DNA of 64,000 nucleotides from Eubacteriales bacterium (GTDB taxonomy: Bacteria > Bacillota > Clostridia > Oscillospirales > SIG627): NCBI GenBank assembly GCA_045536965.1, contig JAZSON010000012.1:147889-211888 (forward strand), in the 5' to 3' direction. A model generated the notes under the pieces. That model made no database searches, was not told the origin of the DNA, and worked only from the letters and a program-made list of their open reading frames with translations. The stretch's first letter is position 1; each line of letters begins with the position of its first letter. This document shows positions 8,910 to 35,340 of the stretch, in pieces. Made by a program: the position numbers and the translations under genes.

Positions 8910-10649
8910 TTATTTTCTTTTGGCTAATGCAACAAGTATGGCTGTAATGCCGACTCCGACAACTCCGATGACCGCCCAAAGATAAAACGGCGGTCCTTCT
9001 TTTTGGGGTGCTTTATCGGAAGATCCGTTCGCATCCCCGTCACCATCCTCTGGATTTTGTTCGACCCCGTCATCCGAAGGATCGTTTCCGTTGTCGTCTT
9101 CATCGCCTTGCGATGAATCCTCATCACCCGAATCATCCAATGTAGGCTCTTTATGATCCCCGCTTGGCTTGTCGGTATCGCCGCCAAGGGTTTCATCGGC
9201 TGCGCTTTCGTGATCGGTGCTTTCATGATCGATATTTTCATCGCCCGCGCTTTCGTTGCCCGCATTTCCGTTTTCGGCGCTTCCGTTGCCAATGTTTTCA
9301 TCGTCGGCGGTTCCACCGTTGCCGCCGGTTTCATTCCCGCCGGTTCCGACATTTTCATTTCCGCCGCCCGATTGCTGGGGCGCTTGGGTCACCGTTACTT
9401 CAAACTGAGTCGAATACCCTTGATAACGAACCGTAACCTCACGGGTACCGAGAATGGAAAAATCAAAAGTGTCGGCGGAAAATCCGCTCGTTACATCAGG
9501 TCCCGTACCGTTTGCCATCTGCAGTTTCAACACAAGACCTTTCAGATCAACGGCTGTATCTGCGGTGGTATAGGTCAATTTCTGCGGCAGCGTTTTCACC
9601 GTGATACCGACGTAGGGCGAATAAGCGGTCTGATGCATGGTCGGATAGGTAAAAATTTTGCTCTCCGTACCCGAAAAATCACCGATTGCGATATGACTTT
9701 CGGAAAATTTCTTTTGATAAAATCCGAGCGACGGCAGGGTCGATGAGCCACTTAAAAAGAAGTCGGTGCGAATACCCGATTCCTGGTCGTCCCAGGTCGC
9801 GTCCAAACCGTACCATCTGCCATCCTCCATCTGCACCAAATTCCACATATGCCGTTCAGCCGAGGAGGAAGAGGTCACACCGTATCCCGTAACAAGAATA
9901 CACGGGATATCGGCCGCATCACACAAAAGTTTGATGGCTTTGGCGTAGCCCTCGCACACCGATTTGTGAGCCGACTCAAATACGCTGATAGCATCGTGAG
10001 CCTTGGCATCCGAAAAATTGCGGTCATAAGAGGTACTTTGGCAAACAAACGTATGAATGGAGCTTAGTTTTTCATACCGCGTGTTACCGCTCGCCTGAAA
10101 ATCCGATACCGCTTGCTTGAGTTTATTGATATGCGTTCCCGTGTTTCCCTGATAAACGGTTTTAATGGCAACCTTCATCTTAACCGCGGTGGTTTTCATG
10201 ACATACTGATTGTCGGGCGTTTTTTCCTCCCGCGCACTGATGCCGAAACTGCAAGACGGATCAGATGCGGATTCGCTGCTTAGATCCAAAAAGAAAATAG
10301 CGGGACAATCAGCAAGCAGAGCATCAAGCGCCGCCTGCAAATGCGGCATGATATCCTGCATCAGCGCATTGACGATGCGGTTCGCCTGCGATTCACTCGG
10401 TCTTGTGCTTTGCGGAAGCGAAACAAGCGGTGTTTTCAACGGTATTTGAATTTCGGCAGGTATATCGGTCTTATTGTAAAGGGCGGTTTTCAGCACGTTA
10501 TATACGTTTTTTTCTTCACTGTCCAACTGATCATAAAAGAAAGAACTGTCCGCCGATGCGGCTTCTCCCACAAAAGCAGATTGCACCGAAACAAAAGCAA
10601 AAATCAGACAAAAAACAAGAACAGGCACAATCTTTTTCAAACCAAACAC
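8910..10649 (-). CDS. Secreted, membrane-anchored transglutaminase-like cysteine peptidase-fold protein
   Basis: N-terminal signal peptide, transglutaminase core (CEGYAKAIKLLCDAADIPC...HMWNLVQ...GLDATWDD) and a beta-rich domain. These are followed by a G/N/E/D-rich acidic linker and a C-terminal TM anchor (FYLWAVIGVVGVGITAILVALAKRK). Confidence 0.8.
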   Translation of the reverse strand: MFGLKKIVPVLVFCLIFAFVSVQSAFVGEAASADSSFFYDQLDSEEKNVYNVLKTALYNKTDIPAEIQIPLKTPLVSLPQSTRPSESQANRIVNALMQDIMPHLQAALDALLADCPAIFFLDLSSESASDPSCSFGISAREEKTPDNQYVMKTTAVKMKVAIKTVYQGNTGTHINKLKQAVSDFQASGNTRYEKLSSIHTFVCQSTSYDRNFSDAKAHDAISVFESAHKSVCEGYAKAIKLLCDAADIPCILVTGYGVTSSSSAERHMWNLVQMEDGRWYGLDATWDDQESGIRTDFFLSGSSTLPSLGFYQKKFSESHIAIGDFSGTESKIFTYPTMHQTAYSPYVGITVKTLPQKLTYTTADTAVDLKGLVLKLQMANGTGPDVTSGFSADTFDFSILGTREVTVRYQGYSTQFEVTVTQAPQQSGGGNENVGTGGNETGGNGGTADDENIGNGSAENGNAGNESAGDENIDHESTDHESAADETLGGDTDKPSGDHKEPTLDDSGDEDSSQGDEDDNGNDPSDDGVEQNPEDGDGDANGSSDKAPQKEGPPFYLWAVIGVVGVGITAILVALAKRK

Positions 10650-11987: not shown

Positions 11988-12160
11988 TGTGTTTTATGTA
12001 AATTGCATAAATACGGGTAGGAATTTTGTGGAAGGATACGAAATTATTTTTACCCCCTTGTTTCCGTGTATATGTTATGTTATCATATATTCACAGGGAG
12101 AAAAGGAGTTCTCCCGAAACAAAACAACAGAATATTAAAAAGGAGGCAAAATCATGAAGA
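11988..12160 (+). repeat. Cassette leader, copy 1 (near-identical to 29374..29558)
   Basis: By eye, the ~115 nt from ggaaggatacgaaattat to the ATG differ from copy 2 at only about 4 positions. Includes a candidate promoter, a GGGAG/CTCCC hairpin and an AGGAGG RBS. Confidence 0.85.
12058..12086 (+). promoter_or_regulatory. Candidate sigma-A promoter inside leader copy 1
   Basis: TTGTTT, 17 nt, then TGtTATCAT (extended -10). The same element is present in copy 2. Confidence 0.4.
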
Positions 12161-12219
12161 GTTTACGCAATCTCAACACAGCGCCCCCCGATGTTCTTCC
12201 TGAGGAAAGGAGAATTTGA
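12154..12219 (+). pseudogene. 21-codon stump homologous to the N-terminus of the 1193-aa secreted protein
   Basis: MKSLRNLNTAPPDVLPEERRI* sits at the same position in the leader as MKNARKLTTQSSGQ... of ORF 29552. The K..R.L.T pattern is shared and the stop lies 1 nt before the next gene's ATG. Confidence 0.45.
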
Positions 12220-12220
12220 T

Positions 12221-13363
12221 ATGTTTGATAAACCACGATTGATATCCAAAAGAAAAATCGTCAAACGATGCCTTTTGGGGTTGATTGCCGTGTATTTAAT
12301 CTTTACTATGATTTTGGGCATACCTTTTGTTTATACGTTTAATAACGAAAAGTTTATTTTCTCGGGTTGGGTAGAAGCTCCCGGCACTCTTCCTCTCTTT
12401 CTTTCCCCAAACGGAAAGCTGGATGAGCCGGAGCGCTTTTTCTCCATTATCGCTCCGGTTTACTCCGAAGTCGATTTGACCGAGGACGGTTCGACAGAAA
12501 GTGATGGTTTGCACCATATCCTCGCCTGGAAGCAAACGTTATTGGGGCAGAATTTTACCCGTTCGCTGGGATACGATATTACTATCCATAACGGTACTGT
12601 CGGTTTTGGCGAATTTTATGCGCACAGCGTAACGCTGATTCCCGGCTACTATCCCGAGGGTAATTCCGGTCGTCCCAAACATATTTTTACCGACCACCTT
12701 CTCATCCATCAAAAGAGTTTTTCGGAAAACGAGTCCGACTCTTGGAAAACATCTGTTAATGCGTATATAACAGGTCCAACAAAGCCTCAGGTTTTATTGG
12801 AAAGCGGTGAGATTGTGGATTATGATCAAGCTGATATACCCTTTAGAGGCAAATATGTTCGTTCATATTCCTCTCCCTTTTTCCCTGTTTTGGATTTTGG
12901 CGAAGCATATTGGGGAATTCTTATTTTATTTTTGTTGCCGGTATGCTTTTCGTTGATTGCCGTTCTTATTCCCCTTGAAACACCGAAGTTTTCCCACAAA
13001 AAAATGGTGCGGCGAGGTCTGCTGATCAAAGGATTGGTAGTTTTGCTTACGCTTGTTTTTCTGCCAATGCCAGCAATATTTTACGGATATGCTCCCCCGA
13101 CATACAACACCGACAGCATCTTTGATATTATCCGTTGGCTGACACCGATCATTTCCATCCCGGCGCTTGCGGTTTGGGTGGCATCGTTTAAGAATAAGAA
13201 ATTTGCTCCCGTCGTAGCCGCCGCGATCATGGTTCTGTGCCTGTATCAACCCCTTGCAAACCTCATTTGCCTGTTTGCCACCGTCATTGCATGGGGATAT
13301 TTTGCCCACGGTGTATGCCGATTCTTCGGACGCTTCAGAAAGGCAAAAGCCAAAGCGGTGTGA
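12221..13363 (+). CDS. Polytopic membrane protein, cassette paralog A (uncharacterised family)
   Basis: Start at ATG 12221 (RBS ggaaaggag). Architecture: N-terminal TM, ~190-aa variable segment, RSYSSPFFPVLDFG motif, then 4 TM helices. It ends in WLTPIISIPAL..FKNKKFAPVVAAAIMVLCLYQPLANLICLFATVIAWGYFAHGVCRFFGRFRKAK, shared with B, C and D. Confidence 0.75.
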   Translation: MFDKPRLISKRKIVKRCLLGLIAVYLIFTMILGIPFVYTFNNEKFIFSGWVEAPGTLPLFLSPNGKLDEPERFFSIIAPVYSEVDLTEDGSTESDGLHHILAWKQTLLGQNFTRSLGYDITIHNGTVGFGEFYAHSVTLIPGYYPEGNSGRPKHIFTDHLLIHQKSFSENESDSWKTSVNAYITGPTKPQVLLESGEIVDYDQADIPFRGKYVRSYSSPFFPVLDFGEAYWGILILFLLPVCFSLIAVLIPLETPKFSHKKMVRRGLLIKGLVVLLTLVFLPMPAIFYGYAPPTYNTDSIFDIIRWLTPIISIPALAVWVASFKNKKFAPVVAAAIMVLCLYQPLANLICLFATVIAWGYFAHGVCRFFGRFRKAKAKAV

Positions 13364-13474
13364 GTGATTTGCGTATAAATAACAACGGAATGAAGAAAAG
13401 GAGGATAGACCATGATGAAAAAAGCTTCTAAAATCACCGCCTGGATCTGGCGCGGCGCAGCACTCCTTTTGGCA
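13133..13474 (+). repeat. Junction module: conserved C-terminal TM block, 48-nt spacer with RBS, then conserved N-terminal block
   Basis: Aligns with 34018..34356. Partial copies lie at 14159..14409 and 35041..35262. About 90% nt identity by eye. Confidence 0.8.
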
Positions 13475-14389
13475 TTCTACCTTTTGGTTGCACTTGTTGC
13501 GGGAATTCCGTTTTTTAATACAAATGTTGGACTGCAATTTGAATATGAATATGACCATTTCCCTCCAAAAGTTTTATCTTTTCTTTCCGTGAATCAAGAG
13601 GTTGGATGGAATGTGTATACAGCATCATTGGGGGTTGATTTGGATCTTTTAAGCAGGCCGAAATATATGTGTGCCGCGTCACCAACAATAACCTCAAATG
13701 TTAGCCTCGGTAGTCACACCATACTTCACACCGACAATCTTGTTTTTAAAAAATATGACGATAAATCCATTTTATTAGAAGGCATAGCCCACACTCGGAT
13801 TATAGGGCTGACAAATCCGCGATACATTACATCGGAAGGCGAATTAAAAACCATTGATTCAAAAGAACTCCCATTATTTACCCGTTCCTATTCCAGTCCG
13901 ATGCTCCCCGTCATCGATACGGGCGCTGATATTTGGGGTATGCTCTTGCTTACCGCCCTCCCGATCCTTTTGTCTTTTGTATATAGCCGTTTTTGCCCGC
14001 AATTTACACTTTCGCAACAAAAGAGAGTTTTGTGTTTTGGTTGGCGGATGAAGCTTGTTTTTGCGATATGTTTGATGTCGGTTTTCTCGGCAACGGCTTT
14101 ATTTTATGTGCCGCATGATAATATTCTGTGGGATTATCCATGGATTTTTGCCATTCTCCGTTGGCTGACACCGATCATTTCCATTCCGGCACTGTCGGTT
14201 TGGGCGGCATCCTTTAAGAATAAGAAATTTGCCCCCGTCGTTGCCGCCGCGATCATGGTGCTTTGCCTGTATCAGCCGCTCGCAAACCTCATTTGCCTGT
14301 TTGCCACCGTCATCGCCTGGGGATATTTTGCCCACGGCGTGTGCCGCTTTTTCGGACGCTTCAGAAAGGCAAAATCGGAAGCGGTGTGA
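13412..14389 (+). CDS. Polytopic membrane protein, cassette paralog B
   Basis: N-terminus MMKKASKITAWIWRGAALLLA is shared with C and D. The TM core is nearly identical to D (34294..35265), while the segment between TM1 and RSYSSPMLPVIDTG is strongly diverged. Confidence 0.75.
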   Translation: MMKKASKITAWIWRGAALLLAFYLLVALVAGIPFFNTNVGLQFEYEYDHFPPKVLSFLSVNQEVGWNVYTASLGVDLDLLSRPKYMCAASPTITSNVSLGSHTILHTDNLVFKKYDDKSILLEGIAHTRIIGLTNPRYITSEGELKTIDSKELPLFTRSYSSPMLPVIDTGADIWGMLLLTALPILLSFVYSRFCPQFTLSQQKRVLCFGWRMKLVFAICLMSVFSATALFYVPHDNILWDYPWIFAILRWLTPIISIPALSVWAASFKNKKFAPVVAAAIMVLCLYQPLANLICLFATVIAWGYFAHGVCRFFGRFRKAKSEAV

Positions 14390-14407
14390 GTGCATTGCGT
14401 ATAAAAA

Positions 14408-14440
14408 CAAAAACGACGGGATTCCGTCGTTTTGTTTTTT
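14408..14440 (+). terminator. Rho-independent terminator ending cassette locus 1
   Basis: aaaACGACGGgattCCGTCGTtttgtttttt. Confidence 0.75.
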
Positions 14441-14555
14441 GTAACGCCTCATCCGTCCACTTCGTGTGCCACCTTCTCCCGCCGGAGAAGGCGAATTCGA
14501 AGGCGGGTACATCCATTATGACTTATTTTTACCCGAAGAATTTGCTATACTTTGC

Positions 14556-35297: not shown

Positions 35298-35340
35298 AAG
35301 GGTCTGTTGCGACCGATAGGTTGCAACAGACCCTTTTTGT
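35298..35340 (+). terminator. Rho-independent terminator ending cassette locus 2
   Basis: AAGGGTCTGTTGCgaccgataggttGCAACAGACCCTTtttgt. Confidence 0.75.

Follow-up and report, generated by a model that had tools for sequence, protein, structure and literature searches.

Probable birth by deletion of an orphan array of membrane-protein genes in a duplicated cassette from an Oscillospirales-like bacterium

In a 64-kb stretch of DNA of a Eubacteriales bacterium (assembly GCA_045536965.1, contig JAZSON010000012.1, positions 147,889 to 211,888; this whole stretch of 64,000 nt is called the window here) we find a gene cassette in two copies, which we refer to as locus 1 (11988-14440) and locus 2 (29374-35340); all positions are those of the window. 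Both loci have a promoter, a 5' untranslated region (UTR), a ribosome-binding site (RBS) module and paralogous membrane genes in common. The four paralogs have six predicted transmembrane (TM) segments each, A and B being found in locus 1, C and D in locus 2. Locus 2 also has a large gene for a protein of 1193 amino acids (aa), and in its place locus 1 carries an open reading frame (ORF) of only 21 codons, termed the stump. As far as can be judged from the letters themselves, the stump is very probably the scar of a deletion that removed the large gene from a once complete cassette. Whether the cassette as a whole represents a Sec-secreted polymorphic effector with arrays of membrane immunity proteins, locus 1 being an orphan array that arose by deletion, is a question on which we find ourselves evenly divided.

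The leaders of the two loci can be aligned from 11988 and 29374 up to the respective start codons, as the initial annotation had proposed for about 170 nt. The similarity is unevenly distributed, i.e. it amounts to 73% in the upstream 45 nt (11992-12036 vs 29378-29422), to 95% in a stretch of 104 nt (12020-12123 vs 29419-29522) and to 88% in a stretch of 58 nt that reaches into the coding sequence (12122-12179 vs 29520-29577); the leader core as delimited by blastn is 97.6% identical over 124 nt, with 3 differences. The four or so differences that had been counted by eye between GGAAGGATACGAAATTAT and the ATG are exactly four, namely three substitutions and one 1-nt indel, and the 13-bp tandem duplication reported for copy 2 is present at 29406-29431 (GGGAATTTATGGC followed by GGGAATTTATGGA). 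The leader ATG of copy 2 (29552) does open the 1193-aa ORF, and the equivalent ATG of copy 1 (12154) opens MKSLRNLNTAPPDVLPEERRI, the TGA of which (12217-12219) ends 1 nt before the ATG of paralog A at 12221. One claim had to be narrowed. The same spacer and RBS module was said to be present at both loci, which is true of the A-B spacer, as it is of the C-D type, but not of the spacer and RBS upstream of A, which go back to the hairpin spacer located after the large gene. Four copies of the RBS module AACAACRGAATNNNRAAAAGGAGG are present in the window, as against 0.00 expected, namely in both leaders and in the A-B and C-D spacers, and a blastn search of the window returned no further copy of the leader beyond the two cassettes.

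The deletion origin of locus 1, suggested at the outset, is supported by the composition of the stump, which is a scar in two parts. Its 5' piece (12154-12179) matches the first 26 nt of the large gene (29552-29577) in 20 of 26 positions. Its 3' piece (12182-12215, CGCCCCCCGATGTTCTTCCTGAGGAAAGGAGAAT) matches 33164-33196 (CGCCCCCCCATTATTCTTGATAAAAGGAGGAT) in 27 of 34 positions, and this target is the 3' arm of a GC-rich hairpin plus the RBS in front of paralog C. The local alignment score of the 3' piece is 27, compared with 11.7 +/- 2.0 for shuffled sequences, and none of 2000 shuffles reached this value. Locus 1 has the 3' arm of the hairpin and no 5' arm, and half a hairpin is what a deletion, and not an insertion, would leave behind. 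The tetranucleotide ACGC is found at both parental end points, and the junction is not clean, reading CAC-AG-CGCC. Given this history, the stop of the 21-codon ORF would be the first in-frame stop encountered in the old spacer.

The scar also carries some information on age. Its pieces have diverged from locus 2 by about 20-23%, which is close to the silent sites of the paralogs (10-24% of the same-amino-acid codons in the conserved blocks differ between two paralogs), so the duplication and the deletion do not appear to be recent. The leader core is conserved far above this neutral level, since 3 differences in 124 nt have a probability of P<=1e-5 even against the lowest silent-site rate. This points to purifying selection at both loci or to gene conversion; both are consistent with an orphan locus that is in use, although only purifying selection requires it. 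Gene conversion is also the core of another explanation, according to which locus 1 never had a large gene and took over both leader and initial codons from locus 2, or else the leader is a generic promoter repeat. A leader identity so far above that of the rest of the loci resembles a recent conversion tract, and the homology between the leader RBS module and the inter-paralog spacers would offer substrates for recombination. However, the 26 nt of coding sequence that adjoin the leader are only 77% identical, which places them outside any recent tract, and the half-hairpin remnant downstream fits a deletion. The generic-repeat version is at odds with the confinement of the leader to the two cassettes within the 64 kb. 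We consider an origin without a large gene highly improbable.

A different question is whether the stump has a function of its own, i.e. whether it is an upstream ORF (uORF) or leader peptide retained to control paralog A via translational coupling or attenuation. It has a strong RBS (AAAGGAGG) 7 nt before its ATG, its stop overlaps the start region of paralog A (UGAUAUG), and the Shine-Dalgarno (SD) sequence of A lies inside it; the UGA-N-AUG geometry thus permits an incidental coupling of the two ORFs. Yet both halves of the stump are explained as remnants, which makes a dedicated peptide unnecessary, and its divergence from locus 2 is like that of neutral sites while the adjacent leader differs by 2.4%. 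Furthermore, the predicted fold of 12092-12230 has no significant alternative structure (z = -1.1), paralog A has a good SD sequence of its own, and a metagenome contig of a related organism (L072) has a leader of this kind joined directly to a paralog, with no uORF between them. A regulatory peptide therefore seems improbable to us. We note that in the public annotation paralog A begins at ATG 12191 (390 aa, P0011), a start without an SD sequence that overlaps the stump ORF out of frame. The ATG at 12221 is the likelier start, because AGGAG is located 8 nt upstream of it, and the annotated start hides the stump; as a practical point, we therefore flag the start codon of paralog A as a probable mis-annotation.

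The leader contains several elements that recur in locus 2. The outermost one is a 21-nt box, situated about 65 nt upstream of the predicted -35 element, in which 20 of 21 positions are identical between the loci, as opposed to only about 73% in the sequence just downstream; it could be a shared binding site for a regulator. The predicted promoter has the same sequence in locus 2 and can be aligned with TGCTATAAT in the leader of L072. It was missed by a simple consensus scan because its -35 element is poor. A hairpin follows near the predicted 5' end of the transcript. The RNA of 12092-12160 folds with a minimum free energy of -10.7 kcal/mol (z = -2.7); the locus 2 version of the hairpin is weakened by an A.C mismatch, and in L072 a hairpin with both arms altered (GGAGAG/CTCTCC) is found at the equivalent place. 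The remainder of the UTR is A-rich and unstructured and bears the RBS module. In L072 the order before a member of the paralog family is TGCTATAAT, hairpin and then AACAACGGAAT...AGGAGG, without a stump and without a large gene. This arrangement may have arisen by recombination between the RBS module of the leader and the inter-paralog spacers, to which it is homologous; such an event would remove the large gene cleanly. No Rfam family was matched in either leader, and a riboswitch or another known cis-acting RNA was rejected on this ground.

The GC-rich hairpin between the large gene and paralog C was scored as terminator-like, with a weak T run. Similar GC-rich hairpins without a good T run are present in another contig, L074 (3150-3215 and 4300-4364), between the large gene and the first paralog and again between paralogs (GGGGCGCCTGTGCCCC), and the metagenome contigs that carry the paralog family break at such repeats. 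The hairpins could act in RNA processing, in RNA stability or as attenuators.

The paralogs themselves show a conspicuous alternation of conserved and variable segments. Hydropathy and charge distribution predict six TM segments with both termini inside, and an acidic loop of 130-180 aa on the outside, between TM1 and TM2. An AlphaFold2 (AF2) model is weak overall (predicted local distance difference test, pLDDT, 55.8), and a beta-rich domain in the TM1-TM2 loop is modelled at pLDDT 70-80. The last 80 or so residues are 93-95% identical across A-D, the first 40 or so are conserved in B, C and D, and a motif RSYSSP..P.IDTG sits before TM2; the centre has only about 20% aa and 38% nt identity. 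At the nucleotide level the 3' block is about 90% identical in all pairs, and the 5' block plus spacer 74-90% identical in B, C and D; a continuous stretch of locus 1, 13136-13435, matches 34018-34317 with 90% identity. The pair B and D is instructive. These proteins are 74% identical, with flanks of 90-94% and a centre of 54% nt identity, and 52% of their same-amino-acid codons differ in the centre as compared to 10-24% in the flanks. This indicates segments of different ages, i.e. a mosaic ancestry. In the C-terminal block the paralogs are separated by 13-18 synonymous changes, and A and B are identical in 71 of 75 residues despite 17 of them, so it is the protein sequence that is under purifying selection, and both genes of locus 1 look intact and constrained. 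Long antisense ORFs lie over the conserved 3' blocks (12926-13558, 14099-14512 and 33916-34484, all on the minus strand). They recur because the sense sequence is conserved, the synonymous-site patterns follow the sense frame, and the ORFs are probably not genes.

The centres are exchanged between strains. In contigs L071 and L069, which represent other strains, the flanks are 88-96% identical to those of the window and the centre is replaced. L071 has a gene only 55% identical to B, which is enclosed by a spacer with 89-93% and a 3' block plus terminator with 96% identity to those of locus 1. In L069 and L070 there is an 84% variant of C, and the gene behind it in the D position has a different centre. 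Such a hypervariable exposed domain on a conserved membrane core, with several alleles per genome and strain-specific centres, is what one would also expect of variable surface receptors that serve self or kin recognition or phage-receptor variation, the large lectin-bearing protein then being a ligand or a modifier. Nevertheless, there is no sign of switching, neither invertible nor site-specific recombinase elements being present nearby; a phage or defence signal was not seen either, and all copies have RBS modules and are apparently expressed together. We assign only a very slight probability to the receptor explanation.

The paralog family is rare, with about 11 proteins among 5.8 billion. 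A word-index search of 5.8 billion proteins gave nine members, and an exhaustive profile search of 1.84 billion representatives only 3 clusters; the representative of the paralog A cluster, an unrelated 30-aa Logan peptide, was set aside as a clustering artefact. At least five copies are present in the genome studied here, A-D and P0004 (327 aa, 56% identical to B), which is located outside the window on the same 300-kb contig and implies at least a third locus. Another member outside the window, P0003 (329 aa, 58% identical to B), is on a 144-kb NCBI contig, and tandem copies are also found in L069, L073 and L074. The last of these (GCA_036720835.1) contains a large gene whose product is 46% identical over aa 152-1188, C-terminal domain included. 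The most distant family member, P0014, directly follows this gene with a paralog identity of about 30%, and after P0014 a second copy of the hairpin spacer leads into the beginning of a further paralog. The module of a large gene with tandem paralogs is thus conserved in a distant genome.

Other searches were negative. Scans with the family alignment revealed no relatives in GTDB genomes, JGI metagenomes and viral contigs, plasmid and phage collections had no match to the paralog family, and the PADLOC defence library had no match either. The DNA pattern of the RBS module gave 4 chance matches in metagenomes, unrelated to the cassette. Look-ups by exact protein of TatD, the large protein, P0003, P0004 and P0015 retrieved no record. 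An origin from a mobile element or a defence system was dropped, the PADLOC, plasmid and phage searches having provided no evidence for it. In the closest GTDB genomes, with identities of at most 55% for TatD and 64% for MetRS, the metG-tatD neighbourhood is kept and the cassette is absent; going by these best values the host is an unsampled Oscillospirales-like lineage.

The 1193-aa protein has a composite structure. A basic n-region followed by a single hydrophobic segment at aa 23-55 (hydropathy) suggests a Sec signal or an anchor, so the protein would be exported. The N-terminal module (aa ~20-506) comprises a weak DUF7948 match and a DNRLRE/CBM96 domain (aa 324-495, E = 1.9e-21). It is followed by a stretch (aa ~507-630) with the sequence ETEPNNT that is PPC-like by eye only, the family searches having given no match, and by a RicinB lectin domain (RicinB_lectin_2, aa 633-787) with PDB lectin matches. 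No RHS_repeat or DUF6531 match, i.e. no RHS/YD repeat, was found in the protein with Pfam and NCBIfam. The N-terminal module could be aligned with the N-termini of about 30 Clostridia proteins that end in very different ways: RHS with Ntox44, RHS with an AHH nuclease, or Lipase_3, Peptidase_M23 and Peptidase_C70 behind lectin domains. An N-terminal module shared across exchangeable C-termini is a hallmark of polymorphic secreted effectors. One of the relatives with a different C-terminus, P0017, has a small lipoprotein gene after it, and small lipoproteins are typical candidates for extracytoplasmic immunity. In the WapA polymorphic toxin, DNRLRE belongs to the N-terminal fragment that binds the wall (PMC12704120).

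The C-terminal domain of the large protein (aa ~790-1193) is an orphan, conserved only in L074, its sole homologue. The motifs YIETHG and IMMACSQ of the window protein read YIEGHG and IISACDQ there, so that the HG and AC residues are kept. We take these strand-HG and strand-AC motifs to resemble the His/Cys dyad of clan CD peptidases, and speculate that the C-terminal payload may be a His/Cys hydrolase. For a caspase-like (clan CD) fold, no HMM (hidden Markov model) match was obtained with the C-terminal domain, and the structure model was unusable. A word-index search with aa 790-1193 gave 0 matches but is uninformative, as it missed even the parent protein, which is in the collection.

Taken together, these features can be arranged into the following scenario. 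The cassette would be made up of a promoter with its 5' UTR, the gene for a large multidomain protein secreted via Sec, and 6-TM membrane paralogs in tandem. The large protein would be the effector, with a WapA-type N-terminal module that binds wall or glycans, a RicinB lectin and a novel C-terminal payload that confers toxicity. The paralogs would be its immunity candidates, with the variable ectodomain exposed outside the membrane and conferring specificity. Locus 1 would have begun as an old duplicate of the whole cassette from which about 3.6 kb were then deleted, with end points near codon 9 of the effector gene and in the loop of the downstream hairpin. In this way the start codon of the effector gene would have been joined to the spacer before paralog A, giving rise to an accidental ORF of 21 codons that ends 1 nt before the ATG of A. 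The deletion would have spared the promoter, the 5' hairpin and the strong RBS, and destroyed the hairpin that separates the effector gene from the paralogs in locus 2. With the hairpin lost and the promoter kept, A and B would be transcribed directly from the effector promoter, as an orphan array. Ribosomes on the scar ORF would cross the SD sequence of paralog A and stop at UGAUAUG, where they could aid initiation at A. The orphan array would widen the cell's repertoire of ectodomain variants.

The term immunity is used here by analogy, on the strength of the domain architecture of the large protein and the structure of the array, and for the effector and immunity function taken by itself we see about as much reason for belief as for doubt. 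Several points weigh against it. The payload region (aa 780-1193) has no Pfam match above noise, no PDB sequence match and no recognised toxin domain, and the prediction of its structure failed (single-sequence AF2, pLDDT 38.5). The structure model of the paralogs is poor and yielded no fold match, and the paralogs have no match in Pfam, NCBIfam or PADLOC. Their near-invariant C-terminal TM block of 80 aa is more conserved than immunity alone would require. RicinB, CBM96 and the PPC-like stretch are found in ordinary secreted enzymes for glycan degradation as well, the two large-gene homologues are too few to look for co-variation between payload and ectodomain, and the high identity of the leaders could stem from gene conversion, not from use.

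Some of these points would suit a more ordinary explanation. The large protein could be a secreted or wall-associated glycan-binding hydrolase for nutrients or adhesion, and the paralogs its partners, i.e. anchors, receptors, maturation or export factors or sensors, locus 1 being a spare partner set left after the loss of one enzyme copy. The lectin, the CBM96/DNRLRE domain and the PPC-like stretch are typical of carbohydrate-active exoenzymes, several relatives of the N-terminal module are lipases or peptidases and not classic toxins, and the invariance of the C-terminal TM block points to a conserved role in the membrane. However, a hypervariable and strain-specific ectodomain in several non-identical copies is unexpected for an anchor or a chaperone, the same module also heads RHS toxins with Ntox44 or AHH ends, and no sugar-utilisation genes were found beside either locus. 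On balance we hold the partner explanation to be unlikely.

Returning to the effector and immunity scheme, its boldest form would be an antagonism system of an uncultured Oscillospirales lineage, dependent on Sec and not described so far, in which a WapA-type carrier devoid of RHS repeats and equipped with a lectin presents a new His/Cys hydrolase payload at the cell surface, where immunity proteins of a new 6-TM family neutralise it. In this case locus 1 would be an effector deletion that kept the promoter and lost the internal hairpin, so that the orphan genes are co-regulated with the array of the resident effector and perhaps expressed above it. This is a tentative and rather doubtful proposal. 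Should the effector and immunity scheme hold, the polymorphic toxins of Gram-positive bacteria would gain a payload domain and a polytopic immunity family that are both new, from a lineage of gut Clostridia without cultured relatives, and the two-part scar would be an unusually clean record of the birth of an orphan immunity array with the regulation of the effector kept. It would also mean that the recombination design of conserved ends and variable centre, known from type VII secretion system (T7SS) arrays, arose independently in an unrelated family of membrane proteins. If the scheme is wrong, what remains is an operon specific to this lineage that was duplicated and carries a deletion, which would be of local interest only.

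Positions of the cassette features in the window (predicted unless directly given by an ORF)
Feature	Position	Strand	Remarks
Upstream box TTTTATGTAAATTGCAYAAAT with imperfect palindrome ATGTAAATTGCAT	11992-12012	+	candidate regulator site; counterpart at 29378-29398
Predicted promoter	12058-12086	+	weak -35 TTGTTT (12058-12063), 17-nt spacer, extended -10 TGTTATCAT (12078-12086)
5' UTR stem-loop GGGAGAA-AAGGAG-TTCTCCC	12096-12115	+	7-bp hairpin near the predicted 5' end
Translation-initiation module AACAACAGAATATTAAAAAGGAGG	12123-12146	+	pattern also in the locus 2 leader and the A-B and C-D spacers
Stump ORF, 21 codons	12154-12219	+	5' piece probably from the start of the large gene, 3' piece from the arm of the post-gene hairpin plus RBS
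Paralog A, 380 aa	12221-13363	+	6 TM, own N-terminus, ectodomain long and variable; SD AGGAG (12208-12212), spacing to the ATG 8 nt
A-B spacer	13364-13411	+	RBS module at 13381-13404; ~90% identical to the C-D spacer (34246-34293)
Paralog B, 325 aa (P0001)	13412-14389	+	positional counterpart of D
Bidirectional terminator hairpin, end of locus 1	14410-14433	.	common to convergent tatD; 10-bp stem, T run on both strands; 96% conserved in L071
Locus 2 leader	29374-29551	+	box, promoter, hairpin and RBS as at locus 1; 13-bp tandem duplication at 29406-29431
Large gene, 1193 aa	29552-33133	+	Pfam, NCBIfam and PDB lectin matches, hydropathy
GC-rich hairpin GGGGGGCG-GCTTA-CGCCCCCC	33152-33172	+	between the large gene and paralog C
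Paralog C, 347 aa (P0007)	33202-34245	+	ORF, paralogy
Paralog D, 323 aa (P0002)	34294-35265	+	followed by a terminator hairpin at 35300-35338

As regards the surroundings, both loci are flanked by housekeeping genes. Locus 1 is situated in the interval from an a/b-hydrolase gene to tatD. The cassettes have a G+C content of 41-45% (12000-14000 and 31000-35000), compared with 48-56% in the flanking housekeeping genes, which could reflect horizontal acquisition or the composition typical of membrane and secreted proteins; no mobile-element genes were seen near these two regions. Two genes away from locus 1, at 8910-10649 on the minus strand, there is a gene for a secreted or anchored protein of 579 aa, for which no link to the cassette was seen. 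This protein combines a transglutaminase-like core with a Big_3 domain, a low-complexity region that is long, acidic and rich in G, N, D and E, and a C-terminal TM segment. Next to locus 2, a weak match to the yybP-ykoY (Mn2+) riboswitch at 28914-29053 on the minus strand (12.2 bits, gathering score 45, E = 0.44) sits upstream of an mntP-like gene (28344-28997, minus strand). The segment 28947-29063 is 92% conserved in L072, where it is found downstream of the solitary paralog, in reversed orientation relative to the cassette as compared with the window.

The general features of the cassette can be compared to three groups of known systems. The closest formal parallel is found in the esaG, tipC and tsaI arrays of T7SSb toxins in Firmicutes, in which non-identical paralogs lie downstream of a secreted polymorphic toxin; these arrays have 5' and 3' homology blocks that reach into the intergenic spacer and variable centres, and recombination through the blocks alters the repertoire (Garrett et al. 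2022, PMC9484751). Among the immunity proteins, TipC is an extracellular protein anchored in the membrane, and TsaI is polytopic (PMC9484751). The cassette likewise has tandem non-identical paralogs with conserved end blocks and variable centres next to a large gene. The differences are threefold. Firstly, the paralogs have no sequence relationship to DUF600, DUF443 or TipC. Secondly, the upstream large protein is of the Sec type, without LXG or WXG and without a T7SS context. Thirdly, there is a second array 17 kb away, behind a retained copy of the promoter and a start-codon stump.

The orphan arrays of type VI secretion systems (T6SS) are known from Vibrio cholerae, where they are attributed to sequential displacement (PMC5361080), and from the acquired interbacterial defence (AID) clusters of Bacteroidales (bioRxiv 10.1101/471110). 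According to these two sources, orphan immunity genes persist without their cognate effector, presumably as a protection against non-self effectors, the arrays being built by recombination at conserved junctions. Locus 1 is similar in keeping candidate immunity genes without an effector, even though the secretion route and the phylum are different and the proteins unrelated. Such arrays usually follow a resident effector or are carried by mobile elements, as opposed to locus 1, which would be a promoter-retaining deletion derivative at a separate chromosomal site.

The WapA/Rhs polymorphic toxins of Gram-positive bacteria also have 'orphan' modules (PMC12704120, and Zhang et al. 2012 cited therein). 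Here the similarities concern the proteins as well: a Sec signal and an N-terminal DNRLRE wall-associated module are shared by proteins with exchangeable ends, the downstream gene or genes are the candidates for immunity, and rearranged loci leave truncated remnants. Unlike WapA, the large protein has no RHS/YD repeats and no recognised toxin domain; by sequence comparison, the proteins of the cassette fall outside the RHS, recognised toxin, DUF600, DUF443 and TipC families alike. The orphans also differ in the end that is retained, since classical ones keep a 3' toxin fragment and an immunity gene downstream of the main gene, whereas locus 1 keeps the 5' end (the promoter and 9 codons) with the whole of the putative toxin lost. 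The points that set the cassette apart from the known systems are two new protein families, the predicted Sec route, and an orphan that keeps the 5' end of its cassette, i.e. the promoter and the first codons.

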